A stretch of DNA of 64,000 nt from an uncultured Syntrophomonadaceae bacterium (GTDB lineage Bacteria; Bacillota; Dethiobacteria; DTU022), in contig CAYQQK010000003.1 in NCBI GenBank assembly GCA_964420065.1, positions 20,478 through 84,477 on the forward strand, given 5' to 3'. Positions 35,248-52,004 of this stretch are shown in pieces. The number at the start of each line of letters is the position of its first letter. Position 1 is the first letter of the stretch. The translations under genes and the position numbers were made by a program. The notes under the pieces were generated by a model. The model saw nothing but the letters and a program-made list of their open reading frames with translations, was not told the DNA's origin and did no database searches.

Positions 35248-35276
35248 TTGCATTGTTTGGATTTCTATGTTATTAT
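35248..35276 (+). promoter_or_regulatory. Sigma-A type promoter (TTGCAT-N17-TATTAT) for the flgB operon
   Basis: Consensus-like -35/-10 elements lie just upstream of the riboswitch. Confidence 0.45.
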
Positions 35277-35295
35277 ATGTTGAAAATTGGTTTAA

Positions 35296-35376
35296 AGACC
35301 GAAAAGAGGGCAAACCCGTCGCAAGGCGGGGACGCAAAGCCACGGATCCGTTTCGGATTGCCAGGCTGCCGGTCGG
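35296..35376 (+). ncRNA. Cyclic-di-GMP-I (GEMM) riboswitch aptamer in the flgB leader
   Basis: P1 GACCG/CGGTC encloses AGGGCAAACC-CGTC-GCAA-GGCGGGGACGCAAAGCC ... GATTGCCAGGCTGCCGG, which matches the GEMM-I core. Confidence 0.75.
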
Positions 35377-35416
35377 AGAGAGGGGCCCCGGATCAAGGGC
35401 TCTTAAGACTTTCGAA

Positions 35417-35441
35417 AGGCAGCGCAAGCTGCCTTTTTTTT
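35417..35441 (+). terminator. Intrinsic terminator of the riboswitch expression platform
   Basis: GGCAGC-GCAA-GCTGCC followed by T8. Confidence 0.65.
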
Positions 35442-35478
35442 GTCTCCAGGAATGACGAAGAAAGGGGGGAAAAAAGTG

Positions 35479-35880
35479 ATGCTTTCCCGGAATAACAGGG
35501 TCATGGAGTGCTTGAACCGGAGTCTCGATGCGGCGGTGTTGCGCCAGCAGGTCACCGCTCATAACCTGGCCAACTTGAATACGCCGCGTTTCAAACGTTC
35601 CACCGTTATTTTTGAAAAATCCCTGCGGCAGGCTCTTGCGCAAACAAAAACCGGGCCGGTGACGACCCATCCGCTGCACCGGCCCGCCGGGAATGCTCTC
35701 CCTGAACCCCGGGTGCAAGTGGAACAACAGACGGCAGTACGGGTCGATGGGAACAATGTTGATCTGGAACGGGAAATGCTGGATCTGGTGATGAACCAGT
35801 TGCGTTATCAGGCCCTGGTCCGGCAGATCAACGGCCGTTGTGATGACTGGCGCTACGTCATTGCCGAGGGGAGGCGCTAA
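35479..35880 (+). CDS. flgB: Flagellar basal-body rod protein FlgB
   Basis: HNLANLNTPRFKR motif. The start lies after the terminator (RBS AAAGGGGGG); the ORF-track start at 35440 lies inside the terminator. Confidence 0.85.
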   Translation: MLSRNNRVMECLNRSLDAAVLRQQVTAHNLANLNTPRFKRSTVIFEKSLRQALAQTKTGPVTTHPLHRPAGNALPEPRVQVEQQTAVRVDGNNVDLEREMLDLVMNQLRYQALVRQINGRCDDWRYVIAEGRR

Positions 35881-35881: not shown

Positions 35882-36337
35882 ATGGCCTTGTTTGAACTGT
35901 TTCATATCTCCGGTTCCGCACTCACGGCTGAAAAGCTGCGTCTGGAGGTTGTTTCCGGCAACCTGGCCAATATGACCACGACCCGTACCGCCGCAGGCGG
36001 TCCCTACCGGCGGCGTACAGTCGTTTTTGCCGAAAACCTGGCCACCTCAAGAAACGGTCCCGCCGTCTCCGCGCCGGTAAGCGGGACGACAGCCGGTCCC
36101 TTGGCCGGCCGGGGGGTTCGGGTCCAGGCTATCCTGGCGGATCACCGCTCTCCCCGGCTGGTCTACGATCCGGACCATCCTGATGCCGGGGAGGACGGTT
36201 ACGTGCCCTATCCGAACATAGACCTGGCCAAAGAAATTACCGATATGATGACCGCTTTGCGGTCCTACGAAGTCAGCTCTACCGCTATCGAAGCCGCCAA
36301 AACCATCTATCTTAAAACACTTGAAATCGGTCGCTAG
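35882..36337 (+). CDS. flgC: Flagellar basal-body rod protein FlgC
   Basis: MALFELFHISGSALTAEKLRLEVVSGNLANMTTT... matches FlgC. Confidence 0.9.
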   Translation: MALFELFHISGSALTAEKLRLEVVSGNLANMTTTRTAAGGPYRRRTVVFAENLATSRNGPAVSAPVSGTTAGPLAGRGVRVQAILADHRSPRLVYDPDHPDAGEDGYVPYPNIDLAKEITDMMTALRSYEVSSTAIEAAKTIYLKTLEIGR

Positions 36338-36357
36338 GGACGAAGGAGGGAACGGTT

Positions 36358-36663
36358 ATGCTCGGGACTGTTACGAATTGTCTCCCTGCTGTACAACCGG
36401 GAAGCGCGGTTGCGGGTGAAAAATCCAAAACGGCTGCAAACCCGACCTTTGCGGCCCGTTTGCAAGAGGCGTTGCAGGAGGTAAACCGGTTGCAGGTCGA
36501 GGCGGACAGGGCATCTCTTGGCCTGGCAACTGGTGACGGGCTTGAAGACCTGCATCACCTCATGATTGCCACCACCAGGGCGCAGTTGTCTTTGCAGCTC
36601 ACGGTTCAGGTCGTGAATAAAGTGCTCCAGGCATACCAGGAAATTTCACGGATGCAGGTTTAA
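36358..36663 (+). CDS. fliE: Flagellar hook-basal body protein FliE
   Basis: C-terminus LHHLMIATTRAQLSLQLTVQVVNKVLQAYQEISRMQV matches FliE. Confidence 0.8.
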   Translation: MLGTVTNCLPAVQPGSAVAGEKSKTAANPTFAARLQEALQEVNRLQVEADRASLGLATGDGLEDLHHLMIATTRAQLSLQLTVQVVNKVLQAYQEISRMQV

Positions 36664-36696
36664 GCGCATCAAATAACCAGGGGAACGGGTGAAAGC

Positions 36697-38232
36697 ATGT
36701 CGGAAGGCAGCAATGCAACCCCGGTAACGGAAAAAAAACAAAGTCCTGCCGGACAATTCTGGAGTGGCTTGAGCCGGCCTACCCGTCTGATCATGGGTGC
36801 GGCGGCGTTCGTGATTGTTTGTGCTTTGTTCTTTTTTATCTTTGGTCAGAAGAAAACCCCGCTGGAGGTGCTGTTCAGCGGGTTGGAACCGGGCCAGGCG
36901 GAGGAGGTGCTGGCGGTCCTGGAAGAACAGCGGATCCCTTTTGATACCGCCGACGAAGGTGCCACGATCCTGGTCCCACGGGAACAGCGGGACCGGTTGC
37001 GGATCAAACTTTCCCCCGACCTTTATGCCCAGGGCAAGGGGTTTGCTCTTTTTGAAGCCGGCGGTCTGATCGCAAGCGACTTTGAACGGCGGGTACAGTG
37101 GCAGATCGCCCTGGAGGAGGAACTGCGTCGGACCATTACCAGTCTCGATTCGATCAAGCAGGCCCGGGTGCACCTGGTCATTCCCGAGGACGGGGTGTTT
37201 ATGCGCGACAGGGGGGTGCCGACCGCCGCCATTTTCGTGCGATTGGAACCGTTGGCTTCATTGACCGACCAGCAAGTGCGCGGCATCCTGACCATGGTTG
37301 CCGGGAGCGTGGAGGGGCTGTTGCCGGAAAACGTGACGATCATCGATGCCCGGGGCAACGTCCTTTTTGATGCCTTCCAGCTAGGGGAAAAAAATTCGCC
37401 CCAGCATGCTTCCAGCCAGATCGAGCTGCAGCGCGGTTTTGAACGGGAACTGGAATATCGTTTGCGAACCCTGCTCGAGCGGATCTACGGTCCAGGTAAA
37501 GCCGTGGCCATGGTCAGCGCCGAACTCGATTTTGAAACCCGTGAACGGACTACCGTTACTTACAGCGATCCGGTTAATCGTTCCGAACAGCACCTTGAAG
37601 AATGGTACGAAGGGACGGCCGGGCTGCCGCTGGAGGTGGGCGAACCGAACATTCCAGGCTATGCCGCCGAAACCGGCGCCGGCGATTACGAGTACGAACG
37701 GATTGAAGACATTATCAACTACGAAGTTGGGGAAACCCGGGAATATATCGCCTCGGCTCCCGGGCAAGTAAAACGCCTTTCGGCGGCAGTCATTCTTGAC
37801 CGGCCCGCTTCAGAAGAAACGGCCGAACGAATCGCCGCCCTGGTTGCCTCGGCCATTGGCCTGGATGATATTCGAGGTGATATCGTTTCGGTCCAGTGCC
37901 TGCCGTTTGATACCTCGTGGCAGGAGGGGTGGGAAGAAGAACCGGCCGTACCTGCTCCGGCGGGACGTTTCACCTTGCGCCCCCTGCATCTTGTTGCCGC
38001 CGCCGTTGCCCTGGGATTGTTACTGTTCCTGGGAGTGGTTCTGGTTCGGCGCAGCCGGGCCGCCCACCTGCAGGATATGGAGCTTTTCCGGGAAGGCATG
38101 ATTGAAGAAGCGGCGGCGGAAGAAAAGCCGGCGCCTCCCGAACAGAAAAAGCATGAACAGGTCCGGCAGATGGCTGAAGATGAACCGGAAGACATGGCCC
38201 AGGTGTTACGAACCTGGTTGGCTCAAGAGTAA
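36697..38232 (+). CDS. fliF: Flagellar MS-ring protein FliF
   Basis: 511 aa with an N-terminal TM, a LEPGQAEEVLAVLEEQRIPF domain and a C-terminal TM. Confidence 0.9.
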   Translation: MSEGSNATPVTEKKQSPAGQFWSGLSRPTRLIMGAAAFVIVCALFFFIFGQKKTPLEVLFSGLEPGQAEEVLAVLEEQRIPFDTADEGATILVPREQRDRLRIKLSPDLYAQGKGFALFEAGGLIASDFERRVQWQIALEEELRRTITSLDSIKQARVHLVIPEDGVFMRDRGVPTAAIFVRLEPLASLTDQQVRGILTMVAGSVEGLLPENVTIIDARGNVLFDAFQLGEKNSPQHASSQIELQRGFERELEYRLRTLLERIYGPGKAVAMVSAELDFETRERTTVTYSDPVNRSEQHLEEWYEGTAGLPLEVGEPNIPGYAAETGAGDYEYERIEDIINYEVGETREYIASAPGQVKRLSAAVILDRPASEETAERIAALVASAIGLDDIRGDIVSVQCLPFDTSWQEGWEEEPAVPAPAGRFTLRPLHLVAAAVALGLLLFLGVVLVRRSRAAHLQDMELFREGMIEEAAAEEKPAPPEQKKHEQVRQMAEDEPEDMAQVLRTWLAQE

Positions 38233-38244
38233 GGGGGAGCAAGA

Positions 38245-39255
38245 TTGCAGAAGGGAAAACCGCTGACCGGTGAAAAAAAAATTGCCATTCTCTGCATGGC
38301 CATCGGTCCCGCCCTTGCTGCGAAGATCCTCAAATATTTTAACGAGGCCGAGATCGAGCGCATCACCGCCGAAATTGCCAATACCACCCGGGTGCGGCGG
38401 GAAATCATGGAAAAGGTGCTGGACGAGTTTATTCTCCTGCACGAAGCGCGGCAATATATCCTCAACGGGGGCATGGATTACGCGCGCCAGCTTCTGGAAC
38501 GGACTGTCGGTACGCAAAAGGCAACGGAAATTATGCGGCGCTTGAAGGAAACGAGCCAGGTCAAGCCGTTTACTTTTGTTCGCAATGCAGACATCAGACA
38601 GCTGGTGAGCCTGATCAGCCAGGAGCACCCCCAGACAATTGCCTTTATCCTGTCCTATCTCGATGCAGATCAAGCCGCACTGATCGTGGCGGAACTGCCC
38701 CAGGAGATCCAGAGCGATATTGCCCGCCGGATTGCGACCATGGAACGCACCTCGCCCCAGGTATTGCAAGGGGTGGAAAGCGTAATGCGAGAACGGCTGT
38801 CGGCTATGTTCCAGCAGGACTTCACCGCAGTCGGGGGGCTCCAGTCGATCGTTGATATTTTGAACAATGTCGACCGGGGCACGGAAAAGCTAATTCTGGA
38901 AAGACTGGATAAGGAAGACGAGGAGCTGGCCGAAAAGATCAGGCAGCGTATGTTCATTTTCGAAGATATCGTTACCCTGGACGATATTTCTATCCAGCGG
39001 ATCATGCGCGAGCTTGACAGCAACGATGTTGCCCTGGCTCTGAAAGGAGCCAGTGATGATGTTAAAAACAGAATTGTCAAGAATATTTCCCGGCGGGCTG
39101 CGGAAATCCTGGTTGAAAATATCGAATATCTGGGTCCGGTCCGGCTTCGGGATGTCGAGGAAGCGCAACAAAAGATCGTCGAAGTGATTCGGCGTCTTGA
39201 TGAAGGCGGCGAAATCATTCTAGCACGGGGTGGGGAAGATGCCATCATCATCTAA
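38245..39255 (+). CDS. fliG: Flagellar motor switch protein FliG
   Basis: Conserved C-terminal torque helix region (MFIFEDIVTLDD...ALKGASDDVK...) and middle domain. Confidence 0.9.
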   Translation: MQKGKPLTGEKKIAILCMAIGPALAAKILKYFNEAEIERITAEIANTTRVRREIMEKVLDEFILLHEARQYILNGGMDYARQLLERTVGTQKATEIMRRLKETSQVKPFTFVRNADIRQLVSLISQEHPQTIAFILSYLDADQAALIVAELPQEIQSDIARRIATMERTSPQVLQGVESVMRERLSAMFQQDFTAVGGLQSIVDILNNVDRGTEKLILERLDKEDEELAEKIRQRMFIFEDIVTLDDISIQRIMRELDSNDVALALKGASDDVKNRIVKNISRRAAEILVENIEYLGPVRLRDVEEAQQKIVEVIRRLDEGGEIILARGGEDAIII

Positions 39256-40030
39256 AATTTTTAAAAACGTGATCGTGGCGGGATTTTCGCTCTACCGCCG
39301 GATTGAAGAAGCGGAAGCGGGACCGGCCGCCGGGAACGGATCCACGGGGATGCCGGCTGTGGACAGGGAGCCGAGTGCGGCTGTCACGGAAGATGCTGGC
39401 GGGCTCGCAAAGGTTGCCGTGCTCGAAAAGGGCGCTGTACCGCCGCCGGAAACCCGGCCGGACCGGAAAGAGATCGAAGAAAAATGGGCCGCCGCCGGGT
39501 ATGCCCGGGGAAAGGCCAAAGCGGAGGCGGAATGCAGGCTTCTTCGGGAGGAGGCCTCCCAAATCATGCAGGAAGCGGGGCAGAACCTGGAAGAGGCCCG
39601 CCGTCGTTCCCGCGAGATTGTAGCCGCTTCGGAAAAAACAATTGTACGCATGGCCGTGGCCGCCGCTGAAAACCTGTTGCATTGCCAGCTGGACCTGTCT
39701 CCTGAAAAGATCATGCACGTAGTGCGCAAAACGATGCAAGAATTGCCGGAAGGTGAAGCGGTTACCCTTTATATCAACCCGGCCGATCTTCAGTCCTGCC
39801 GGCAGGCTGTAGAAAACTTGCGCCGGGAACGATCCGGTTTGCCCTTACCGGAGCTGCTGCCCGATGAGACTCTTCCCCGGGGCAGTTGTCGTGGCGAAAC
39901 GGATAGCGCTATTGCCGAGTATTCCCGTGAAGAAGAACAGGCGCAGATTGAGGAGAAATTGATGGCGGTCGCCCGGGCGAAGGAACAACAGTTACTTGAG
40001 GAGGAAGACGGTGAATATGGACGGCACTGA
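39230..40030 (+). CDS. fliH: Flagellar assembly protein FliH
   Basis: Glu/Ala-rich coiled N-terminus plus FliH-like C-domain, placed between fliG and fliI. Confidence 0.6.
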   Translation: MGKMPSSSKIFKNVIVAGFSLYRRIEEAEAGPAAGNGSTGMPAVDREPSAAVTEDAGGLAKVAVLEKGAVPPPETRPDRKEIEEKWAAAGYARGKAKAEAECRLLREEASQIMQEAGQNLEEARRRSREIVAASEKTIVRMAVAAAENLLHCQLDLSPEKIMHVVRKTMQELPEGEAVTLYINPADLQSCRQAVENLRRERSGLPLPELLPDETLPRGSCRGETDSAIAEYSREEEQAQIEEKLMAVARAKEQQLLEEEDGEYGRH

Positions 40031-41366
40031 GGGACTCGTCAGCAGCGCCAGGTACATTTCCACACTCGAACCTCCAGGCGGAGTGCGCCTTTCGGGCCGC
40101 GTGCGCCAGGTGATCGGGCTGGCTCTGGAAGCGAGCGGAATCCAGCCTTTCATCGGAGAGCTGTGCCGGGTCAAAACCGCGGCCGGCTTGATAGTCGAGG
40201 CCGAAGTGGTCGGTTTTCGGGAAAAAACTGCCCTGTTGATGCCTTTGGGCGAGTTGCGGGGCATTGCCCCCGGTTGTCCGATCCAGCCGACCGGGGCCGG
40301 TTTTACCGTTCCCGTCAGCGAAAAACTTCTCGGTCGCGTTTTGGACGGTCTCGGCCGGCCTCTCGACGGAAAGGAACTGTCTTCTTCCGCTGAAGCCAAA
40401 GAGCGCCCCGTGGATAACAGCCCGCCCAACCCGATGCAGCGCCGCCCGATCACAGCGGTCCTGCCGACCGGGATCAAGGCGCTGGACGGCCTGCTGACCT
40501 GCGGCCAGGGCCAGCGCATCGGTATATTTTCCGGGAGCGGGGTCGGAAAGAGCACTTTACTTGGCATGATCGCTCGCCACAGTACCGCCGACGTCAACGT
40601 GATTGCCCTGATCGGGGAGCGGGGTCGCGAGGTTGGTGATTTTATTACCCGCGGTGTTGGCCCCGCCGGGCTGCATCGTTCAGTCATTGTCGTTTCGACT
40701 TCAGACCGGCCCGCCCTGGAACGGGTCACGGGAGCCAAGGTGGCGATCACCATCGCCGAATACTTTCGCGATCGGGGCCAGAATGTGATCTTTATGATGG
40801 ACTCGGTGACCCGTTTTTGCATGGCCCAACGGGAAGTCGGCCTGGCCGTGGGTGAGCCTCCTTCCACCAGGGGCTACACCCCTTCCGTTTTCGCCTTGCT
40901 GGCGCGATTCCTGGAACGTTCCGGTTGTTCCAGCGATGGCAGTATCACCGGCTTTTACACCGTCCTGGTGGACGGGGATGATTTCACCGAGCCGATCACC
41001 GATGCGGTGCGCAGTATTCTGGACGGGCATGTCATTTTAACCCGAAAACTGGCTGCTCAAAACCACTTCCCGGCCCTTGATATTTTGCACAGCAACAGCC
41101 GCCTGATGCCTTATCTGATCGATCCGGAACATGCCGGGGCGGCGGCGGAAATACGCAAGCTGCTGGCGGTCTATAGTGAAGCGGAAGATCTGATCAGTAT
41201 CGGGGCCTATCAGCGGGGTTCCCAGGAAACGGTGGACCGGGCCATCGCCAGGCGTAAGGACATTTTAAGTTTTCTGCGCCAGAACCCGGACGAATGTTTT
41301 GATTGGGACGACACCCTGGCCCGTTTGAAAGAGACCGCCGGGGTGACAACCGGTGCGCCGGCCTGA
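40017..41366 (+). CDS. fliI: Flagellum-specific ATPase FliI
   Basis: Walker A GSGVGKST and a T3SS ATPase fold. Confidence 0.9.
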   Translation: MDGTEGLVSSARYISTLEPPGGVRLSGRVRQVIGLALEASGIQPFIGELCRVKTAAGLIVEAEVVGFREKTALLMPLGELRGIAPGCPIQPTGAGFTVPVSEKLLGRVLDGLGRPLDGKELSSSAEAKERPVDNSPPNPMQRRPITAVLPTGIKALDGLLTCGQGQRIGIFSGSGVGKSTLLGMIARHSTADVNVIALIGERGREVGDFITRGVGPAGLHRSVIVVSTSDRPALERVTGAKVAITIAEYFRDRGQNVIFMMDSVTRFCMAQREVGLAVGEPPSTRGYTPSVFALLARFLERSGCSSDGSITGFYTVLVDGDDFTEPITDAVRSILDGHVILTRKLAAQNHFPALDILHSNSRLMPYLIDPEHAGAAAEIRKLLAVYSEAEDLISIGAYQRGSQETVDRAIARRKDILSFLRQNPDECFDWDDTLARLKETAGVTTGAPA

Positions 41367-41407
41367 ACGGGGGCGCAGCCCGGAAAACGTGTGAAGGAGG
41401 AGCTGTC

Positions 41408-41848
41408 GTGACTTTTCGTTTTCCACTACAACGGGTTTTACACTACCGGCTCTCCCGGGAAAATCAAAGCAAGCAGCAACTGGACTTCTGCCGGCGATCC
41501 CTTGAAGAAACGGAGCAGGGTTTGCAGGTGTTGCATCATACCCGGGATGGTACCGCAGAGATCTTGAGACAGCAATATGTGACTGAAACGGATTTCCTCC
41601 TGGTGCAGAGCGCCTACCGGCATCTGCATCTGACGGATCAGCAGTTGAAAAAGCAGGAAAAATTGCGCTTCCGGGCACTTCAGACCGTGCAAAAGCAGCA
41701 AAAAGAGTTGCAACAGCGCTGGCAACAGAGGCGGATCCTGGAAATCCTGCAGGATCATGCCTGCGCCTCCTACCGGCGGGAAGAGACGCGGCAGGAACAA
41801 AAAACCTGTGACGAGCTGGCCCTGTACGCGTACAAGCCCAAAATTTGA
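41408..41848 (+). CDS. fliJ: Flagellar export protein FliJ
   Basis: VTFRFPLQRVLHYRL... coiled-coil, 146 aa. GTG start after a GGAGGAG RBS. Confidence 0.65.
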   Translation: MTFRFPLQRVLHYRLSRENQSKQQLDFCRRSLEETEQGLQVLHHTRDGTAEILRQQYVTETDFLLVQSAYRHLHLTDQQLKKQEKLRFRALQTVQKQQKELQQRWQQRRILEILQDHACASYRREETRQEQKTCDELALYAYKPKI

Positions 41849-41909
41849 CCGATCAATCCGGCTGTGCCGGATCAAACCGGTCGGAATGAAGATGAAAGGA
41901 GGTGAATCC

Positions 41910-43277
41910 ATGTCTCAAATAGTGGTTGTATTGCCACACGGCGGGGTTGAAGAGACAACATCCAATATCCACGTCAGGGGAAACGGTGCTGGCGACACGC
42001 TTTTTGCCGGCTTGCTGGAGCAGGTCCTCTTTCCAGACCGGGCCGTTTCCGGCTCCATGAAAATGACGTTGCCTTCGGAAACGGCCGTCTCGGCTCCGGG
42101 GGAGAAAGAATGTGGAGAGCGGGGAAAAAGCATCACTTTTCCCGGAAATGCCGTACCCGGGAACGGATCCGAAGAGCGGGAAAGGGATCAGGTCGCAACC
42201 GCCGCCGGCCGCGCCGGTTGCACTCCTGCGGCAGGGCTGTTCTCCTTGCCGGTTTATTCCGGCACTACTCCGGCTGCTCTGGAAACGGGCTTTGCGGCAA
42301 AAACGGGATCTGGAGCACTGCCCTTGCTGCTGGAAATGGCCCGCAATGACCCGGTTAGGGCCGTAACGGACGTCATTTCCAAGGCGCCGCTGCGGTTGGA
42401 TGCCTGTTTTGATCTTCCGCCGCAAATCGTGGAACCGGAGGACGGTGGATACTTGGCCGTCCCGGAGCGGCAGGATCCGGCGGATCGGTTCCTTTCCCAA
42501 ACCGGGGTTCGTTCAAACGGGCTGCAAGAAAAAGTGTTTCCCCTTGCGGCAGGAAGCACGGCTCCGGAATGCCCGAAACCGGAGCCGGTGCGGCCTGAAA
42601 GAGCGGCAACGCCCGGGGAATCTGCAGTATTTTTCCGAGAAAACCGGACGGGGAACCCGGGAGCAAGGCCCCGTGGCGCCAAGGAACCCTTTTTGGAAAC
42701 GCCGCTTTTCAAAAACGAATCCGGCCCCGTTGCGGCGGAGCCGCACCGGGGCGTTTCGGCGGCCGGAAGCGGGCCGGTAGAACCCTTTTCTTTGACCCGT
42801 TCCGGTCAAGCGGGAAGAACGGCCGGGTCAGCCCGCGAGGATCTATTGGCGCAGTTGGGGGCGCGTATTACTTACCTGCGGGAACGCGGCAATCTGCCGG
42901 CGGAAATGAGGTTGCAGCTAAAGCCGCCGGATCTGGGGGAGATTGCGATCCGGGTCTCTCGCCAGGACGGCCGCCTGTCCGTCCGGTTTGCGGCGGAAGT
43001 TTCGGCACAGGAACTGCTCCGGGCCTGTCTCGGTGAGTTGCAACAGCGGTTGCCGCAGGCGGATTTCTCTCTGACACGCTCCGATCTCGGTGCTGCCGGT
43101 CCGGGTGCCTCTTTTTCCTCCTGGACGGGAGACGGGGATCGGGGTCAAAATCGCTTTATTCCGGACCAGTCCGGCGGGGGAGCCGAGGTGGAGCGGCCCG
43201 CGGTTGCTCCGGATACGGCTTCTTTCCCCGATCTGCAGGCCGGTTCTTTTCACCAGGGGATCAACTACTGGGCTTGA
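41910..43277 (+). CDS. fliK: Flagellar hook-length control protein FliK
   Basis: Pro-rich central region and a C-terminal Flg_hook domain (LKPPDLGEIAIRVSRQDGRLSVRFAAEVSAQELL). RBS AAAGGAGGTGA. Confidence 0.6.
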   Translation: MSQIVVVLPHGGVEETTSNIHVRGNGAGDTLFAGLLEQVLFPDRAVSGSMKMTLPSETAVSAPGEKECGERGKSITFPGNAVPGNGSEERERDQVATAAGRAGCTPAAGLFSLPVYSGTTPAALETGFAAKTGSGALPLLLEMARNDPVRAVTDVISKAPLRLDACFDLPPQIVEPEDGGYLAVPERQDPADRFLSQTGVRSNGLQEKVFPLAAGSTAPECPKPEPVRPERAATPGESAVFFRENRTGNPGARPRGAKEPFLETPLFKNESGPVAAEPHRGVSAAGSGPVEPFSLTRSGQAGRTAGSAREDLLAQLGARITYLRERGNLPAEMRLQLKPPDLGEIAIRVSRQDGRLSVRFAAEVSAQELLRACLGELQQRLPQADFSLTRSDLGAAGPGASFSSWTGDGDRGQNRFIPDQSGGGAEVERPAVAPDTASFPDLQAGSFHQGINYWA

Positions 43278-43297
43278 GCGAAGGGAGGTCAACAAAG

Positions 43298-43729
43298 ATG
43301 ATCAATGCAACGACCGCAGCCGCAGCTACGACGACGGCTTCAGCTTCCAGCGGGAACGTGGGCAAGCAAGAGATGGGGGTGGATCTGTTTTTACAGCTTC
43401 TGGTGACCCAGATGCGTTACCAGGACCCCCTTTCGGGATCGCAGGATACGGGTGAACTGATGACCCAGCTTACCCTTTTTACGATGCTCGAGCAAGTGGT
43501 TCAGCTTCAGCAGGCGGTAAACCGGCAGGCTATCGCCCAGGATCAAAGCCGTACGCTTGACTTGCTTAACCGGACCGTTGAGGTGAGGGATTCCGGTGGA
43601 AACGTGCGGCAGGGCGAGGTGACCGCGGTCATCTTCGAAGCGGAACGGACCCTGGTTGCCGTTGGCGGGATCGAGTATCCTGACAGCGCCGTGATCCGGG
43701 TCGTGGGAGGGGCTGTCCATGATCTCTAG
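43298..43729 (+). CDS. flgD: Flagellar hook capping/scaffold protein FlgD
   Basis: MGVDLFLQLLVTQMRYQDPLSGSQDTGELMTQLTLFTMLEQ matches the FlgD N-domain. Confidence 0.75.
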   Translation: MINATTAAAATTTASASSGNVGKQEMGVDLFLQLLVTQMRYQDPLSGSQDTGELMTQLTLFTMLEQVVQLQQAVNRQAIAQDQSRTLDLLNRTVEVRDSGGNVRQGEVTAVIFEAERTLVAVGGIEYPDSAVIRVVGGAVHDL

Positions 43730-44117
43730 AACCGGGCCCCTGAATCCGGCCGCACCCGGGCGGAGCCCTGTTCCGGTCCGACGCCCTGAACGAAGGCCGG
43801 CGCCGGAGCACCGGGGTTTTTCCTTTCAGGACCTTCTGGAAAAAACACAAGTCCGGGAAGAAGGCCTGGTTTTTTCCGCCCATGCCCGCGAACGCCTTGA
43901 AAGCCGTCGCATCCGACTGCAGGAAGGCGATCTGGATAAACTGTCCCGGGCGATGGAGAAAGCCGGGCAAAAAGGAGCCCGCTCGGCGTTGTTGCTTTAC
44001 GGCACTCTGGCCATGATCACCAGCGTGCCCAATCGCACCATCATTACCGCCGTGGATACGGCCGGGGCGGGCGCACAGGTTTTTACCAATATCGACAGTG
44101 CGGTCATCGTTGAATAA
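43719..44117 (+). CDS. Flagellar operon protein (TIGR02530-like), between flgD and flgE
   Basis: FSFQDLLEKTQ...FSAHARERLESRRIRL...LAMITSVPNRTIITAV. Family recalled from memory. Confidence 0.45.
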   Translation: MISRTGPLNPAAPGRSPVPVRRPERRPAPEHRGFSFQDLLEKTQVREEGLVFSAHARERLESRRIRLQEGDLDKLSRAMEKAGQKGARSALLLYGTLAMITSVPNRTIITAVDTAGAGAQVFTNIDSAVIVE

Positions 44118-44208
44118 GGCCGGACCTCCGGCGGGGGAGCCTTGTCCCGTGGAAAGAGCGAAGCGGGACGGCCGCACCGGTTTTAATATGCCAGAAGGAG
44201 GTAGTTTC

Positions 44209-45711
44209 ATGATTCGTTCATTGAGTACCGCCGTTTCCGGTTTACGGGGCTACCAGATCAAACTTGATGTGATCGGCAACAATATTGCCAATGTGAATAC
44301 GGTTGCTTTCAAAAAGTCCCAGGCCCGTTTCGAGGACCTGCTCAGCGAGACCATCCAGAGCGCGACCGCACCCCTGGTTCGAGGCGGGATCAACCCGTCA
44401 CAGGTGGGGACCGGGATCCAGGTCTCCTCGATCATGGATCATCACGACCAGGGGGCCATGCAGACGACCGACCGGGACACCGACCTGGCGATCGAGGGGG
44501 CCGGCTTTTTTGTTGTCTTTGACGGGCAGCAGCTCTACTTTACCCGGGATGGTTCTTTTGGGCGTGACGCCAACGGAGAGCTGGTCAACGTCAATGGCCT
44601 CAAGTTGATGGGTTATATCGGCCGCGATACCGATGCGACCGGTGAACTGAGTTCGCTGCACATCCCCCTGGGCGAGCAGATGGTGGCCCGTGCCTCGGAA
44701 AACCTTTACTTTTCAGGAAACCTGGACGCAGGCGCCCGTGAAATGATGCCCGAGATTCAGGTACTATATCTGGGCAATGCTACCGGCGGCAGCTTTACTT
44801 TGAGCAACGGAACGTTCAACGAGACATTGAACTTTGATGCTGATATTGACGCGATCACCGACGCCCTGGAAGACTTTTACGGAAGTGGGATGGTTACTGT
44901 AACGGACGACGGCGCGGGCGGTTTCGAGATCGCTTTCGATCCGGTCGTTGGCAAGTCGGGGCTTATATTTGACGGTAGCGATTTGGATGATGCGACCGAA
45001 GAACCGGGTCTGGATGAAAAGCAGTCGTTCAAGGTGGCGGACTGCCGCCATTACGAGTACGACGTCTTCGATTCCCTTGGGCGGCGCTACCTGGTCGAGT
45101 TTGTCTTTACCCCGGCGGGGGGTAATACGTGGGCCTACGAGGCCACCCTGGAGGGGGGGGCGATCTCTATCGGTGGCGGGATACTGGCTTTTGACACAAA
45201 GGGTTATATCGACCAGAGCGCCTCCAACATCGGCCCCCTGAGCTACACCCCGCCCGGCGCCGATACACTCAATGTGATGCTTGATTTCTCGAAAGCAACC
45301 CAGCTGGCCGGATCGAGCAACCTCCTCGTGCGGGAGCAGGACGGGTTTACCGCCGGTGAGCTGGTCGCGTTTTCGATCGGTCGGACCGGGGTCATTACCG
45401 GCACTTACAGCAACGGGATGGTAGAACAGTTGGGGCAGCTGGCGTTGGCTTACTTTGCCAACCCGGAAGGTTTGTTGAAAGAGGGCGGAAACCTGTACCA
45501 GATCACGGCCAACTCCGGCGAGGCCCGGATCGGCGCGGCGGGGGTTGACGGCCGGGGCATGGTCCAGTCCTACTCCCTGGAGATGTCGAACGCCGACCTC
45601 TCTTTCGAATTTACCGAGTTGATCACGACCAGCCGGGCTTTCCAGGCCAACACCCGGGTCATCACTACTTCCGACGAAGTATTGCAGGAAGTGATCAATA
45701 TGAAGCGGTAA
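44209..45711 (+). CDS. flgE: Flagellar hook protein FlgE
   Basis: MIRSLSTAVSGLRGYQIKLDVIGNNIANVNTVAFKKSQ with a GAAGGAGG RBS. The ORF-track start at 44098 is upstream of the RBS. Confidence 0.9.
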   Translation: MIRSLSTAVSGLRGYQIKLDVIGNNIANVNTVAFKKSQARFEDLLSETIQSATAPLVRGGINPSQVGTGIQVSSIMDHHDQGAMQTTDRDTDLAIEGAGFFVVFDGQQLYFTRDGSFGRDANGELVNVNGLKLMGYIGRDTDATGELSSLHIPLGEQMVARASENLYFSGNLDAGAREMMPEIQVLYLGNATGGSFTLSNGTFNETLNFDADIDAITDALEDFYGSGMVTVTDDGAGGFEIAFDPVVGKSGLIFDGSDLDDATEEPGLDEKQSFKVADCRHYEYDVFDSLGRRYLVEFVFTPAGGNTWAYEATLEGGAISIGGGILAFDTKGYIDQSASNIGPLSYTPPGADTLNVMLDFSKATQLAGSSNLLVREQDGFTAGELVAFSIGRTGVITGTYSNGMVEQLGQLALAYFANPEGLLKEGGNLYQITANSGEARIGAAGVDGRGMVQSYSLEMSNADLSFEFTELITTSRAFQANTRVITTSDEVLQEVINMKR

Positions 45712-45717
45712 CGCTCT

Positions 45718-45770
45718 CCCACTTCTCCCTCCTTGCGGGGGGGAGGGAGAAGTGGGGTCTTTTTCTCTCC
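45718..45770 (+). terminator. Hairpin terminator after flgE
   Basis: CCCACTTCTCCCTCC-ttgcgggg-GGGAGGGAGAAGTGGG followed by a tcTTTTTCTCTCC T-rich tail. Confidence 0.5.
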
Positions 45771-45868: not shown

Positions 45869-46684
45869 ATGAAACGCTTTGACGCCATGACGTTGTTGGG
45901 CATGATCACCGGCCTCAGCTTGGTCCTCTTCGGGATCAGTAACGAAGGAGGAGACCTGGGGGGGTTCTGGAACTTTTCCGGTATTCTGATTACCGTCGGC
46001 GGTTCTTTTGGCGCGCTGATGGTTAATTACAGGGCGGATGAGATCAAGGCTGTTTTACAGGTGACCAAGCAGGCCTTCATCAGGAGGGATGAAAGTATTG
46101 TTGAACTAAGCCGTCATTTCACCGACATGGCAACCAAAGCCCGCCGCGAGGGGCTGCTGGGTTTGGAGGACGAACTGGAGGAAATCACCGACTCTTTTTT
46201 GCACAATGGGCTGCAAATGGTGATCGACGGTTTTGAACCGGATACGATCCGCCATATTTTGAATGCCGAAATAGACGCCCTGGAGGGACGGCATGAACTG
46301 GGTCAGAATCTTTTCCGGACCTGGGGTGCGCTTGCCCCTGCTTTCGGCATGATTGGGACCCTGATCGGCCTGGTGATGATGTTGACCCGGCTCGATGATC
46401 CCAATGCGATCGGGCCCGGCATGGCGGTGGCGCTTTTGACCACCTTTTATGGCGCCATCTTGGCCAACCTGGTCTTTATTCCGCTGGCCGGCAAGCTGGC
46501 TATTTACAGCGAAAACGAGGTTCGCCGGAAAGAGATCATGATCGAGGCCCTGCTGGCCTTGCAAAGCGGGATCAACCCGCGCCTGCTCCAGGAACAATTA
46601 AAAGCCTACTACACACCCCAGGAAAAAAGGCTTCTTGAAACACCGGAACGGGAAGAAGAGGGGAAGGCGATCAGCAATGCCTAG
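45869..46684 (+). CDS. motA: Flagellar stator protein MotA
   Basis: 4-TM MotA/TolQ/ExbB family with C-terminal FGMIGTLIGLVMM...AVALLTTFYGAILANL. Confidence 0.9.
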   Translation: MKRFDAMTLLGMITGLSLVLFGISNEGGDLGGFWNFSGILITVGGSFGALMVNYRADEIKAVLQVTKQAFIRRDESIVELSRHFTDMATKARREGLLGLEDELEEITDSFLHNGLQMVIDGFEPDTIRHILNAEIDALEGRHELGQNLFRTWGALAPAFGMIGTLIGLVMMLTRLDDPNAIGPGMAVALLTTFYGAILANLVFIPLAGKLAIYSENEVRRKEIMIEALLALQSGINPRLLQEQLKAYYTPQEKRLLETPEREEEGKAISNA

Positions 46685-47423
46685 CCGGCGTTCTCAGCGG
46701 CCTTCTAAAAAAAACGAGGTCGATACTTCTTCCTGGATGGTTACCTATACCGATATGACCACCCTGCTCCTGGCCTTCTTCATTCTGATCTTCTCGTTTT
46801 CGATCATTGATGTGGAGCGCTTTGAACGTATTTTGGCTTCGATCCAGCTTTCCTTCCTGGGGCATACCGGTATTCTGGACAGCCCCCCGGAAATCGACCG
46901 GCCGATCTTCGAGGAGATCCCCGTTGGCGGCGGCCTGTTCGAACAGGATGAAGTGGCTTTACTGGAACGGATGCAAGAAATAGAAAAAGTGAAGCAACAG
47001 GTCGAGGAGTTTCTGGAAAGCATGGGTTTAACGGGTGTGGTGGAGGTAAGGGTGGAACATCGCGGCGTGGTCATGAATCTGCCCGATTATATCTTTTTCG
47101 AGCGATCCAGCGCTGATTTGCGCCCGGAGGCATGCGTGATTCTGGACAAATTAGCCAAGATTTTCCGGCAAGTACAACACCGGATCATCGTTGAAGGACA
47201 TACCTGCAATCTGCCGATCAACCTGCCTCTGTTCCCCAGCAACTGGGAACTGTCGGTGATCCGTTCGGTGCGGGTGACACGCTACCTGGTCGAAAAACAG
47301 AAACTGGAACCAAACCGGCTTATCGCTACCGGTTACGGCGAGTACCAGCCGCTGCAATCAAACGAGACAGCCGAAGGACGCGCGGCGAACCGCCGGGTTA
47401 CATTTGTGATCGAAATCGAATAA
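46677..47423 (+). CDS. motB: Flagellar stator protein MotB (OmpA-like peptidoglycan-binding)
   Basis: N-terminal WMVTYTDMTTLLLAFFI plug/TM and a C-terminal OmpA domain (GHTCN...NRRV). Confidence 0.85.
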   Translation: MPSRRSQRPSKKNEVDTSSWMVTYTDMTTLLLAFFILIFSFSIIDVERFERILASIQLSFLGHTGILDSPPEIDRPIFEEIPVGGGLFEQDEVALLERMQEIEKVKQQVEEFLESMGLTGVVEVRVEHRGVVMNLPDYIFFERSSADLRPEACVILDKLAKIFRQVQHRIIVEGHTCNLPINLPLFPSNWELSVIRSVRVTRYLVEKQKLEPNRLIATGYGEYQPLQSNETAEGRAANRRVTFVIEIE

Positions 47424-47459
47424 AACACCGGCACTGGACCGGTTCAAGGGGGTGGCATC

Positions 47460-47981
47460 TTGCAGGCAGGGGTGAAACGGAGAAGCCTGGAGGAATTCCC
47501 GGCCCGGGAAGCGCCAAAAAGTGCCGCACCGCAGGGTGGTAAGGAAAAAACATTGTTCCTTTTATTAATCACCGTGCTGGTATTGTTCTTTATTACCACC
47601 GCTTTTTTACTGTTTGGAAAGGACTTGATCGCCCGGCTTCCCACTTTCGCGGCCGGAGATAAAACAGTGGAGGCCGGACCGCAATACCAGACCGGTCTGA
47701 AAGAATTTCAGGTCAACCTGGCCGATAACGGCGCCAGGCGCTACCTGCGAGTAAAGCTTGTGCTCGGGTATGACGCCAGGTCGCTTCAGAAAGAGATCGA
47801 GCGGCGGGAAAACGAAATGCGCTCCGCCATCATCACCCTCCTCCGTGGCAAGACCGTAGCCGATCTGGACGAGCCCGGAGGTGCAGTAAAACTACAGGCC
47901 GATTTAATGGCGGAAGTGAACCGGTTTTTAGCAACCGGTGAAATCGAGGCGATTTACTTCGATGAATTGATTATCCAGTAG
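47460..47981 (+). CDS. fliL: Flagellar basal body-associated protein FliL
   Basis: Single TM; C-terminus RYLRVKLVLGYD...IYFDELIIQ matches FliL. Confidence 0.7.
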   Translation: MQAGVKRRSLEEFPAREAPKSAAPQGGKEKTLFLLLITVLVLFFITTAFLLFGKDLIARLPTFAAGDKTVEAGPQYQTGLKEFQVNLADNGARRYLRVKLVLGYDARSLQKEIERRENEMRSAIITLLRGKTVADLDEPGGAVKLQADLMAEVNRFLATGEIEAIYFDELIIQ

Positions 47982-47984
47982 GGA

Positions 47985-48359
47985 GTGACCGGCATGGCTG
48001 AACACGGCTTCAATGCATTCGATTCCAGGGCTACCCCTTCCGTGAAAGAAAACGGTGTTCCGGTGGTGAACAGGGTTACTTTTCCTTCCTTGCCGGACGC
48101 ACCTGCCGGCCCGTCACAGCATGGGATACCTGCCGTATTTCATGCTGTGGCGCTGGCCCTGCAAGCAGAGCTTGGCAAAACCATGCTCAAGGTCCGGGAT
48201 TTGATCAATCTTGAACAGGGCTCGCTTCTCAAGCTGGACCGGCTTGCCGATGAGAGTATCGCTGTTCTGGTTAACGAGGTTCCGTTCGCACAGGGCGAAG
48301 TGGTTGTGATCAACGACCGTTTTGCTGTTCGGATCACCGCTTTCGACGGAGAAGCTTGA
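47985..48359 (+). CDS. FliN-family (SpoA domain) switch/export gate protein
   Basis: C-terminus LEQGSLLKLDRLADESIAVLVNEVPFAQGEVVVINDRFAVRITAF matches the SpoA/FliN domain. Confidence 0.6.
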   Translation: MTGMAEHGFNAFDSRATPSVKENGVPVVNRVTFPSLPDAPAGPSQHGIPAVFHAVALALQAELGKTMLKVRDLINLEQGSLLKLDRLADESIAVLVNEVPFAQGEVVVINDRFAVRITAFDGEA

Positions 48360-48390
48360 TCGGGTTAAAACGTTAAAAGAAGGAATAAAC

Positions 48391-48777
48391 ATGGAAGAAT
48401 ATGCTTTTCTGGCCAGAGTTATCCCGACCTTGCTGCTGGTGCCGGTCCTGGCCTATCTGGCCCTGCGTTATGGCTTGAAAGCCATTTACCCCGGTCTGGG
48501 ACGGAGCCGCCTGCGGGTACTGGAAAAGATACCTCTCGATGCAAAATCGGGCAGTGCACTGCTGCTGGTGCAGGCCGGTGACGAACTGCTCCTTTTGGGG
48601 CTGGCCCGGGGCGGTGTTTCACTGATCAAGGAACTGGAACCGGAGTTGCTGACGGACAAGGAAGGCCAGCCGGCAGGCGATACTCCGGCCGTTCCGGACG
48701 GCTTCGCCGGTTTTCTGAAACAGGCCGGTCGGAGCCTGCTCAAACCGCTGCAGCAGGAATGGCGGCGGGCACGATGA
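48391..48777 (+). CDS. fliO: Flagellar biosynthesis protein FliO/FliZ
   Basis: Single-TM protein (LLLVPVLAYLALRYGL) followed by LLLVQAGDELLLLG, immediately upstream of fliP. Confidence 0.6.
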   Translation: MEEYAFLARVIPTLLLVPVLAYLALRYGLKAIYPGLGRSRLRVLEKIPLDAKSGSALLLVQAGDELLLLGLARGGVSLIKELEPELLTDKEGQPAGDTPAVPDGFAGFLKQAGRSLLKPLQQEWRRAR

Positions 48778-49538
48778 AGACAAACCGGCTCAAAACTGTT
48801 CTGAGCATTCTGCTCGTTCTGGCCCTGGTGCTGTGGTATGGGACCGGGCGGGCGGGAGCACAAACACCTTCTTTGGAACTGCATCTGGGCGGAGGCGGTG
48901 AAGAACCGGCGGCCCTGGTTGGCACCTTGCAGCTTCTACTGGTGCTGGCCTTGCTTAGCCTGGCGCCGGCCATGATCATGCTCATGACTTCCTTTACCAG
49001 GATTGTCGTGGTCCTGGCTTTTGTTCGCAATGCGCTGGCCACGCCGCAGATCCCGCCGAACCAGGTTCTGATCGGCCTGGCCATTTTCCTTACTTTTTTT
49101 GTGATGAGCCCCACCCTGAACAGAATTAATGAAGAGGCTTTGCAGCCCTATCTGGCCGGTGAGATCGAACAGGAGGAAGCGATTGCGGCGGGTTCCGGGA
49201 CCATACGCGAGTTCATGTTGCCCCATACCCGGGAGAAGGACTTGCAATTGTTCATGGGCTTGGCCGGGTTGGAGGTATCACCACCGGCGGAGGGAATTCC
49301 CTTGTATGCGTTGATCCCTTCTTTTGTCATCAGTGAGCTCAAAACCGCTTTTCAAATGGGTTTCGTGGTTTTTATCCCTTTCCTGATTATCGACATGGTT
49401 GTGGCCAGCACGCTTATGTCCATGGGTATGTTCATGCTTCCCCCCGTGATCGTGTCCTTGCCGTTCAAGTTGATGCTGTTTGTTCTCGTCGACGGGTGGT
49501 ATCTGGTGATCAAATCTTTAATGGAAAGTTTATTTTGA
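48774..49538 (+). CDS. fliP: Flagellar export apparatus protein FliP
   Basis: Signal peptide plus conserved FliP core (FTRIVVVLAFVRNALATPQIPPNQVL). Confidence 0.9.
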   Translation: MKTNRLKTVLSILLVLALVLWYGTGRAGAQTPSLELHLGGGGEEPAALVGTLQLLLVLALLSLAPAMIMLMTSFTRIVVVLAFVRNALATPQIPPNQVLIGLAIFLTFFVMSPTLNRINEEALQPYLAGEIEQEEAIAAGSGTIREFMLPHTREKDLQLFMGLAGLEVSPPAEGIPLYALIPSFVISELKTAFQMGFVVFIPFLIIDMVVASTLMSMGMFMLPPVIVSLPFKLMLFVLVDGWYLVIKSLMESLF

Positions 49539-49550
49539 GGAGTGCGAAGG

Positions 49551-49817
49551 ATGACGGCAGATCAGGTTCTGGGAGTAGTGCGGGAGGCGATTGTGCTTAT
49601 CTTGTTAATGGTGGCTCCGTTACTGGGTACGGGGTTATTGGTTGGCCTGACGGTGAGTGTTTTCCAGGCTACCACCCAGATCCAGGAACCGACGCTGGCC
49701 TTTGTCCCCAAAATCGTTGCCGTTCTGGGGGCGCTTTTTTTATTTGGCGGCTGCATTTTGCGCCTGATCGTTCAATTCACCCTGCAGTTGTGGGAAGCAG
49801 GATTCACCTTGATGTAA
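49551..49817 (+). CDS. fliQ: Flagellar export apparatus protein FliQ
   Basis: 89 aa, 2 TM; matches FliQ. Confidence 0.85.
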   Translation: MTADQVLGVVREAIVLILLMVAPLLGTGLLVGLTVSVFQATTQIQEPTLAFVPKIVAVLGALFLFGGCILRLIVQFTLQLWEAGFTLM

Positions 49818-49974
49818 ATAGTTGGTTTTTCCTCCCCTTCCCTCCTTGTAAAGGTGGAACGGAGCAGGGGTTACGGTAACCGTTGATATTGGCGGCGGCA
49901 AGCAGGCAATTTCTCATCCCTCTTGAGGGGGAAAAGGTGTGGCCGGAGGGGATGGGTCAGGGGGGAGTGATAAG

Positions 49975-50751
49975 GTGATCGAAGAAATTTTTAACCAGGA
50001 TTGGTGGTTTCCCTATCTGCTCATTACCGCGCGGGTGACCGGGGTGATTTTTCTGTTCCCCTTTTTCGGTTGGCGCGGTGCCCCGGCGGCGATCAGGCTC
50101 TGGCTGTCCATGTTCATCGGGCTGGCCATTTTCTTCTCCTTGCGGGGAGAAATATTTCCTGTTTCCCGGGGCGGGGTGGAAACGGTGTTGTTCATGGCCA
50201 AGGAAGTTCTGACAGGGTTGGCACTCGGTTACCTGAACCTGTTATTTTTAACGGTGTTCCTCAACACCGGCCAGTTCATCGACATCAAAGCCGGTTTGAT
50301 GCTTTCCGGAGTGTTCGAACCGCAATTCGGCAACCAGGTTACTTTTGTAGGGCAGCTCTATTATCTGACGGCGATGGCTTTTTACCTGGCCATCAACGCG
50401 CATCATTATTTTTTGCAGGCGTTGGCAGAAAGTTTTGCTTTGATTCCTTTGGGGGCCGGACTTTTCGGTCGGTCAATCGCAGGCGGGCTGGCCCGGATCC
50501 TGGCCGATTCGATTCGCCTTGCTTTTCAACTGGCTGCGCCGATCATTGTTACCCTGCTTCTAGTTGACCTGGCCCTGGGTCTTGTTGCCCGGACGGTGCC
50601 CCAGATCCATGTTTTCATCGAAGGACTACCCTTGAAGATCGCCCTTTCCCTTTTACTGGTTGCAGTATTGCTGCCTTTGACGGGAATAGCTATGGAAAAT
50701 TTCCTTAACCGGTTTTTACGGCAGTATCTTCAATTCATGCAGGGGTGGTGA
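49975..50751 (+). CDS. fliR: Flagellar export apparatus protein FliR
   Basis: Polytopic, about 260 aa, located after fliQ. The start is uncertain; a GTG at ~49975 was chosen. Confidence 0.8.
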   Translation: MIEEIFNQDWWFPYLLITARVTGVIFLFPFFGWRGAPAAIRLWLSMFIGLAIFFSLRGEIFPVSRGGVETVLFMAKEVLTGLALGYLNLLFLTVFLNTGQFIDIKAGLMLSGVFEPQFGNQVTFVGQLYYLTAMAFYLAINAHHYFLQALAESFALIPLGAGLFGRSIAGGLARILADSIRLAFQLAAPIIVTLLLVDLALGLVARTVPQIHVFIEGLPLKIALSLLLVAVLLPLTGIAMENFLNRFLRQYLQFMQGW

Positions 50752-50755
50752 AACC

Positions 50756-51841
50756 GTGTTATTTCTCGCCGCAGAGGGAGGAGACAAAACTGAACAACCA
50801 ACCCCGCACCGCCTTCGGGAAGCGCGGCGCAAGGGGCAGGTTTTCAAAAGCACAGAACTGAATGCGGCGATCAACATTCTTGGGGTGATGCTGGTACTGC
50901 TCCTTCTGGGGCGAATGGCCGGCGTTGCTTTCCTGGGGATGTTCAGGCATTATTTCGATCAGATCGGGGAACGTGCCGTTGACATGGGCAACATCAAAGC
51001 TGTCGGTGCAGAAGCAGGGTATTTTTATTTTAATCTGGTTGCCCCGATCTTTTTAACCGCCTTGCTTCTCGGGGTAGCATCCAACCTGGCCCAGGTCGGC
51101 TTCCTGATTACGCCCTCACAATTGACACCGCAACCCGGCCGGCTCAATCCCATGGAGGGGTTGAAAAGAATCGTTTCAGGCCGGGCCCTGTTTGAACTGT
51201 TGAAATCGCTCCTCAAAATTGTAATCGTGGGTCTAGTTGCGTACACGTATGTTCGCGGCCGGCTTGACCGGACCCTGATGCTGCTCGATCGCAGCCCGGT
51301 TGTGTGCATGGAATTTTTTTGGCAGACCATGGTCGAGCTGGGATTGCGGGTCGGGTTTGTTTACGCGGCACTGGCGGTGCTGGACTACCTTTTTCAGCGC
51401 TGGGAATACATGAAAAGCATGCGCATGAGCCGGATGGAGGTTAAAGACGAGTTGAAACACCTGGAAGGGGATCCACTGATCCGTTCCCGGATCCGGGAAA
51501 AACAACGGCATCTGGCCCGCCAGCGTATGCTGCATGACGTGCCCGAAGCGGACGTTGTGGTCACCAACCCGACGGAAATAGCAGTAGCCTTGCGCTATCG
51601 CGCTGACCGGGACAGCGCGCCGCGCGTTGTGGCCAAGGGAATGGCTCGCATTGCTGCACAGATCAAAAAAATCGCCCGGGAAAACGAGGTGCCGGTGGTG
51701 GAAAATCCCGGCGTAGCGCGCTTGCTCTGGAAACAGGCTGAACCGGGTGAGGAAATACCGGTTGATCTTTACCAGGCGGTGGCCGAGATCCTGGCCCTGG
51801 TCTACCGGCTTAAGGGAAAACAGGTTCCCGAGTCGGTATAA
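50756..51841 (+). CDS. flhB: Flagellar export apparatus protein FlhB
   Basis: GDKTEQPTPHRLREARRKGQVFKS N-terminus; the autocleavage NPTH-like region is present (NPTE). Confidence 0.9.
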   Translation: MLFLAAEGGDKTEQPTPHRLREARRKGQVFKSTELNAAINILGVMLVLLLLGRMAGVAFLGMFRHYFDQIGERAVDMGNIKAVGAEAGYFYFNLVAPIFLTALLLGVASNLAQVGFLITPSQLTPQPGRLNPMEGLKRIVSGRALFELLKSLLKIVIVGLVAYTYVRGRLDRTLMLLDRSPVVCMEFFWQTMVELGLRVGFVYAALAVLDYLFQRWEYMKSMRMSRMEVKDELKHLEGDPLIRSRIREKQRHLARQRMLHDVPEADVVVTNPTEIAVALRYRADRDSAPRVVAKGMARIAAQIKKIARENEVPVVENPGVARLLWKQAEPGEEIPVDLYQAVAEILALVYRLKGKQVPESV

Positions 51842-52004
51842 AGGACTTCCCTTTTCCCCTTTGCGGGGGGAGAAGGAGGGGCAAAGATTGAACTAACGAC
51901 GTCTCTATTGTTCAATAATCTTCTTCTCTCTCACCCCCTGTTTCCCCCAGGGTGAGGAGAAAAGAAGCCGGGGAAGAAGCAGTTTGTACGGGAGGTAGAA
52001 CAAC

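Follow-up and report, generated by a model that had tools for sequence, protein, structure and literature searches.

The leader of the flagellar gene flgB in an uncultured Syntrophomonadaceae bacterium is very probably a transcriptional OFF switch of the early flagellar operon, formed by a class I riboswitch that responds to c-di-GMP (cyclic diguanosine monophosphate). The leader lies in a stretch of 64,000 nucleotides (nt) from contig CAYQQK010000003.1 (assembly GCA_964420065.1, positions 20,478 to 84,477 of the forward strand), hereafter the window, to which positions refer unless another locus is named. A first-pass annotation of this stretch had proposed a promoter, a GEMM-I aptamer and an intrinsic terminator ahead of flgB and had likened them to the Cd1 riboswitch of Clostridioides difficile. 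Feature coordinates are collected in Table 1.

A scan of the whole window with Rfam at gathering thresholds returned three matches: the flgB-leader aptamer, a clan-mate aptamer at 5604-5694 and a tRNA, so the leader element had correctly been counted as the second riboswitch of its kind. The leader match (35299-35373, plus strand) was to RF01051 (c-di-GMP-I), with a score of 61.2 bits and an E value of 1.6e-9 computed over the entire window and the full set of 4227 families. The alignment spanned the full model (1-87) and the score was 26 bits over the gathering threshold of 35. The covariance model on which the GEMM-I assignment had been made to depend thus supported it, and the claimed P1 helix was present, GACCG (35297-35301) pairing with CGGTC (35370-35374). 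The minimum-energy fold of a transcript ending at 35374 was the aptamer including P1. P2 (35310-35335) is capped by a GCAA loop of the GNRA type. P3 (35338-35367) is short, and the receptor positions of the RF01051 model are deleted from it, leaving no 11-nt tetraloop receptor. Docking of a GNRA loop into such a receptor is typical of 'type 1' members of the class and not universal; it is absent from the window aptamer, and a receptor-less P3 was also found in close relatives. Since Rfam includes members without the receptor, its loss is not class-defining.

The ligand site of class I aptamers is a three-helix junction in which c-di-GMP is contacted by G20 (J1/2), A47 (J2/3) and C92 (J3/1), in the numbering of Vc2 from Vibrio cholerae. 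We take G35309, A35336 and C35369 to be the equivalents of these nucleotides. Junction positions were mapped with the structure lines of Rfam, and both the logic of the junction and the structure line of the related model RF03167 placed the C92 equivalent at C35369 in J3/1. Among 14 aligned flgB-linked aptamers the A47 and C92 equivalents were invariant (14/14) and the G20 equivalent was G in 13. Judged by its junction nucleotides, the leader aptamer is of the canonical c-di-GMP type, and because these are G35309, A35336 and C35369 it would be neither a cGAMP (cyclic GMP-AMP) nor a 'GGC' variant. Compared to Vc2, the structural reference, it shares the junction with the three contact nucleotides and the GNRA loop on P2, whereas its P3 is a 12-base-pair (bp) hairpin lacking the 11-nt receptor and carrying one C-A mismatch.

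Covariation supported P2 and P3, with 96.8% of cells paired in the 14 flgB-linked homologues and six pairs changed on both sides. None of 500 shuffles did as well, and slid registers dropped to 25-49% paired. P1, compared by eye, is 5-7 bp long in close relatives and has G-U and A-U substitutions.

The terminator scan identified a hairpin at 35414-35437 with the core GGCAGC (35418-23), a GCAA loop and GCTGCC (35428-33), and a predicted energy of -15.8 kcal/mol. The GC hairpin and run of eight T residues, said to end 38 nt before flgB, were found exactly so: the flgB ATG at 35479 is 38 nt after the last T (35441), with 37 nt between them, and an in-frame GTG lies at 35476. A simple terminator scan of the 2-kb region found four sites compared to 3.1 expected, which is no enrichment, and because the site count was not above chance the case for the terminator was made from hairpin strength, position and conservation. 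Its position and the GGCARC arm were kept in all close relatives.

The 5′ arm of the terminator, GGCAGC, is complementary both to GCUGCC at 35428-33 and to an identical GCUGCC at the 3′ edge of the aptamer. This upstream copy takes in the final three nt of P3, J3/1 with the C92 equivalent, and the nt with which the P1 3′ strand begins. Growing transcripts were folded step by step with ViennaRNA. A transcript to 35413 folded as the aptamer plus a linker hairpin. When the transcript was extended to 35425, the minimum-energy fold was an antiterminator in which 35365-70 pairs with 35418-23, stacked under the linker hairpin. Its energy, which varied with the 5′ end of the transcript, was -52.1 or -56.5 kcal/mol compared to -46.7 kcal/mol with the aptamer enforced, and it was favored by 5.8-9.8 kcal/mol. 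The full-length transcript folded as aptamer plus terminator. This succession from aptamer to antiterminator to terminator was also obtained in step-wise folds of eight of nine close relatives, and a hairpin of different sequence occupies the same linker position in loci L003, L005, L007, L008, L015 and L025. For the variable base of the aptamer segment, taken together with the opposing base of the terminator arm, the nine relatives had C-G (three), U-A (three) or U-G (three) and never C-A, a pattern consistent with antiterminator pairing.

The promoter claimed for the leader was also present, its -35 element weak (matching the consensus at just three of six positions, for which reason the consensus scan did not list it) but the element as a whole conserved. 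The -35, the spacer and the TGnTAnnnT motif were kept in the three closest distinct relatives (L003, L005, L007), and the equivalent site in L015 is a near-consensus TTGACC-N17-TGcTATAAT. We infer a transcription start near 35283, which predicts a terminated RNA of ~158 nt.

These elements suggest the following mechanism. Transcription would begin near 35283 from the sigma-A-type promoter, and the aptamer would be made first. When c-di-GMP occupies the three-helix junction, P1 would stay closed along with the base of P3, and GCUGCC at 35365-70 would be unavailable, leaving GGCAGC (35418-23) to pair with the downstream GCUGCC (35428-33); the hairpin and its U8 tract would then release the short RNA 38 nt before flgB. 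In the ligand-free leader the emerging GGCAGC would invade the 3′ edge of the aptamer and lengthen the linker hairpin into the antiterminator, and polymerase would continue into flgB and beyond. The logic would be OFF because, once ligand stabilizes P1 and P3, the antiterminator would lose its target and termination would follow. In folds starting at 35283 a weak 5′ hairpin overlapped the P1 5′ strand. It may, with low confidence, sequester that strand and help keep the ligand-free state open; inspection by eye suggested that L003, L005 and L008 could form a comparable UUGG...CCGA pairing and that L007 and L015 could not.

The arrangement recurred in related genomes. A search with FlgB recovered a 100% identical protein (P0001) in public assemblies together with graded homologues, while a FlgC protein search of genome contigs found no relative. 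The identical sequence occurs in Logan assemblies SRR8925752 and SRR8925753, and a 78% relative is GCA_900198705.1. Named cluster members among the nearer relatives were labelled Bacillota or Dethiobacteria, and the homologue contigs share the order fliD-fliS-fliT-like, leader, flgB-flgC-fliE-fliF. A comparison with the leaders of related species, which the first-pass annotation had called for, showed an aptamer 60-110 nt upstream of flgB in 17/17 loci from close FlgB homologues, comprising all seven distinct leaders. More widely, 80 GTDB species representatives were retrieved with an FlgB alignment and their aptamers called by Rfam scans, which were used in place of a regular-expression screen for the aptamer core that recovered only nine of the 16 flgB-linked aptamers. 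An aptamer of clan CL00126 was present upstream of flgB in 16 of the 80, including representatives of Dethiobacter, Syntrophomonadaceae, Moorella/Neomoorella, Pelotomaculum, Carboxydocellales and other Bacillota, so the arrangement is common in these anaerobic Bacillota. None of L079-L098 (including Selenomonas and its relatives, Paenibacillus, Thermoanaerobacterium and spirochaetes) had an aptamer upstream of flgB. One Syntrophomonadaceae metagenome-assembled genome (MAG), L061, carries a c-di-GMP-I aptamer (76 bits, 2560-2649 of that locus) not in front of flgB but within the block of flagellar genes, ~650 nt downstream of it.

Several points weigh against this interpretation of the leader. 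C35343 and A35363 form a mismatch inside P3 where most relatives have U-A and which otherwise occurs only in the closest relative, L003; with this mismatch and no 11-nt receptor, the window aptamer could have an affinity unlike that of model aptamers. The full-length fold contains the terminator even without ligand, and readthrough must therefore be kinetic, although kinetic control is usual for such switches. The sequences compared for antiterminator covariation are related and supply about two independent changes, and one close relative, L019, showed no switch in its minimum-energy folds. Some transcripts may begin further upstream, because the -35 element is weak and the terminator scan found no plus-strand terminator between the upstream fliD-fliS-fliT-like genes and the leader. 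Finally, it is from sequence that we infer binding of the ligand, the in vivo direction of the response and the extent of the transcript.

Three other explanations were considered, all of them improbable. That the aptamer senses a different cyclic dinucleotide, either 3′3′-cGAMP as in the GEMM-Ib riboswitches of Geobacter or the ligand of a 'GGC' class, is very unlikely. The atypical P3 could be read in its favor, as could the best score of many relatives' flgB aptamers, which is with RF03167 ('c-di-GMP-I-GGC'); those of L005-L018, L025, L026, L035, L037 and L041 pass its gathering score. The RF03167 model shares the short receptor-less P3 scaffold with the window aptamer. However, at the A47 position its consensus has G (GACGCGAA) where RF01051 has A (GACGCAAA), and the window aptamer, for which RF01051 is the best-scoring model, has GACGCAAAG with A35336. 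Every sequence examined had A at this variant-defining position, and the relatives' RF03167 alignments show their mismatch exactly there. Membership of the 'GGC' variant, an idea that came from RF03167 as the relatives' top model, was thus ruled out, and because the A47 position keeps A, automated RF03167 labels in this clade are explained by the short-P3 scaffold rather than by the variant nucleotide. The GEMM-Ib riboswitches have the same fold and clan but carry A at position 20, where the window has G35309, and among the relatives only L019, which could be counted for another ligand, has A. PilZ-domain and HD-GYP-like genes in the flagellar cluster also point to c-di-GMP signalling.

A slightly smaller probability attaches to the aptamer being a decaying relic, with the hairpin and T8 acting as a constitutive attenuator or as the terminator of the fliD-fliS operon. 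The C-A mismatch and the lack of any other terminator between the upstream genes and flgB would fit such a reading, whereas the margin of the aptamer over its gathering threshold, the invariant junction nucleotides and the compensatory changes across lineages would not; in addition, the promoter sits between the upstream gene and the aptamer, and a constitutive terminator before an essential early flagellar operon would abolish otherwise intact motility genes. Least probable of all is an ON switch, or an element that controls translation instead of transcription termination. The class I c-di-GMP riboswitches include ON as well as OFF switches, and the Shine-Dalgarno sequence is just ~20 nt past the T-run. 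An ON switch, however, would require the aptamer 3′ strand within the terminator stem, while the terminator here stands apart from the aptamer, as a hairpin of its own 40 nt downstream. Because the aptamer 3′ edge recurs in the terminator 3′ arm, folding of the aptamer would free the terminator 5′ arm, which is OFF logic. Against translational control, the folds showed no stable pairing of the Shine-Dalgarno sequence with the leader.

The aptamer of L019 (1313-1391 of that locus; MAG Bacillota bacterium AS09scLD_241, JAAYGO010000237.1) is itself unusual. It has A at the G20 position and scored just 44.8 bits; GACGC is replaced by GAGGC, and its loop, GUCA, is not of the GNRA type. L012, a close relative, has G at position 20. 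The L019 aptamer may be a variant in specificity, or else a copy in decay.

The c-di-GMP-responsive OFF switch proposed for the leader has a well-studied counterpart. The flgB 5′ untranslated region (UTR) of C. difficile contains Cd1 (Cdi1_3), a class I aptamer that causes c-di-GMP-dependent premature termination: c-di-GMP raises the terminated product in vitro and an RNA of ~160 nt is found in vivo (PMC6366702, PMC3649979). Cd1 lowers expression of the flgB operon and thereby that of sigD, motility and toxin expression (PMC6366702, PMC3649979). The operon there is 23 kb long (PMC6366702) and its promoter lies 496 bp upstream of flgB (PMC3649979), with ~300 nt, including an invertible 'flagellar switch', parting the terminator from flgB (PMC3649979, PMC5386303). 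The window leader is likewise a class I aptamer in the flgB 5′ UTR with predicted OFF logic through an intrinsic terminator, and the terminated RNAs would be of similar size (~160 nt for Cd1 compared to a predicted ~158 nt). By every feature that can be tested in silico the window element appears to work like Cd1. The Cd1-type match therefore stands for the OFF-switch architecture, the position before flgB and the RNA size. It does not extend to the long 5′ UTR, since only 37 nt separate the T-run from the ATG, nor to the invertible switch, since no inverted repeats flanking the window leader were found. Whereas the Cd1 operon carries sigD, the window has a sigD-like gene on the same strand (56815-57702) after the T-run hairpin at 45717-57. 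The host, from an uncultured Bacillota lineage with ~57% G+C, is also unlike C. difficile.

Table 1. Features of the flgB leader and of the genes that follow it, in window coordinates.
Feature	Position	Strand	Description or basis
Putative sigma-A promoter	35248..35276	+	-35 TTGCAT 35248-53, 17-nt spacer, extended -10 TGtTATTAT 35268-76
Weak 5′ hairpin	35287..35302	+	UUGGUU/GACCGA, -4.4 kcal/mol; ViennaRNA folds starting at 35283
c-di-GMP-I (GEMM-I) aptamer	35297..35374	+	RF01051, minimum-energy fold, covariation
Aptamer 3′ edge GCUGCC, predicted antiterminator target	35365..35370	+	Fold of transcript ending at 35425
Variable linker hairpin, upper part of predicted antiterminator stem	35376..35413	+	ViennaRNA, -14.1 kcal/mol
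Intrinsic terminator	35414..35441	+	10-bp stem GAAAGGCAGC / GCUGCCUUUU, GCAA loop, T8 35434-35441
Shine-Dalgarno sequence and flgB	35462..35880	+	Shine-Dalgarno AAGGGGGG 35462-69 (GGGGGG 35464-69), ATG 35479, stop 35880; Pfam Flg_bb_rod
flgC, fliE, fliF, fliG, fliH, fliI, fliJ, fliK-like, flgD-like, small open reading frame (ORF), flgE	35882..45711	+	Pfam, gene calls on the identical contig L001, ORF list
G+C-rich hairpin between flgE and motA	45717..45757	+	18-bp perfect hairpin with T-rich tail TCTTTTTCTC; terminator scan, sequence
motA, motB, fliP, fliR, flhB, flhA, flhF, flhG-like, PilZ-domain ORF, sigD/fliA-like	45869..57702	+	Pfam

Downstream of the leader, all eight genes that it had been said to precede (flgB, flgC, fliE, fliF, fliG, fliH, fliI and fliJ) were confirmed by Pfam. 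The unit had nevertheless been understated, as fliK-like and flgD-like ORFs and flgE run on from fliJ without a break, and the flgB transcription unit would reach at least the end of flgE at 45711. The hairpin beyond flgE is the first strong plus-strand hairpin with a T-run downstream of the flgB leader; it is a possible partial terminator or stabilizer of a flgB-flgE transcript and the first candidate 3′ end. The same-strand cluster continues beyond motAB with fliPQR, and flgF/G, fliM and fliY come after the sigD-like gene. Transcription from flgB possibly continues to the PilZ gene and the sigD-like gene near 57.7 kb, although the hairpin at 45717-57 may end some transcripts before the latter. 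With a sigD-like gene in the downstream same-strand cluster, high c-di-GMP would therefore also indirectly lower late flagellar genes.

The PilZ-domain ORF (56157-56888, plus strand) lies between the flhG-like gene and the gene for the sigD/fliA-like sigma factor. Its product is a candidate c-di-GMP-binding flagellar brake, and its place within the flagellar cluster means that c-di-GMP may act on the cluster through RNA as well as through protein. Upstream of the leader are two flagellin genes, fliD, fliS and a fliT-like ORF ending at 35152. Further upstream, an HD_5 (HD-GYP-like) gene (19510-20718, plus strand) stands directly before a FapA-family gene, the pair spanning 19510-22529 and heading the late flagellar genes flgK, flgL and the flagellins. 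The HD_5 product is a possible c-di-GMP phosphodiesterase.

Within the 80 nt 5′ of the sigma-A promoter (35168-35247), two blocks are kept in the relatives' leaders, CAATGTCGAAAC (35173-84) and TTAAATTTTCTTACTTTACCGAAGAAATTTCAATTT (35207-42), which may serve as an UP element or as the site of a regulator. A sigma-D (sigma-28) promoter assembled from TGTCGAAA (35176-83) and TAAATTTTCTTACTTTACCGAAGAA (35208-32) was rejected because the spacings do not fit TAAA-N15-GCCGATAA. The motif TGTCGAAW occurs seven times in the window compared to 4.8 expected and is not enriched. A sequence resembling the blocks upstream of the flgB promoter, ATGTCGAATAA, lies at 5552-5562, ~45 nt upstream of the other aptamer.

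That second aptamer (5604-5694, plus strand) matches RF03167 best, with 74.1 bits (gathering score 59), yet it has GACGCAAAG, that is, A at the variant-defining position. It precedes a transglutaminase-like ORF with a likely start at ATG 5750. No separate terminator hairpin was found at this aptamer; its P1 can be lengthened by CCCTG/CAGGG pairing, and immediately after it comes the T-rich run CTTTTGTGTTT. Elsewhere, a gene for a CRISPR-associated exonuclease of the Csa1 family (950-1858, plus strand), at the window's start, suggests a nearby CRISPR-Cas locus.

The flgB-leader element leaves the existing picture of c-di-GMP riboswitches unchanged, the design having already been demonstrated in C. 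difficile. A bolder proposal, which we regard as unlikely, is that the short-P3 receptor-less flgB-leader scaffold of Dethiobacteria, Syntrophomonadaceae and their relatives constitutes a subclass distinct in function, set within a c-di-GMP circuit of several layers made up of riboswitch, PilZ, sigD and HD-GYP components. If this were true, affinity or kinetics might be tuned in the subclass, cyclic-dinucleotide specificity might differ in some members (L019, which has A at position 20, being an example), and the circuit with a PilZ brake, sigD and an HD-GYP-like gene would be one not described outside C. difficile. The practical value of the element lies in annotation and in the choice of compact natural OFF switches. 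For the biology of the group, it would extend a well-studied design, in which c-di-GMP stops the early flagellar genes by premature termination, to uncultured anaerobic Bacillota.

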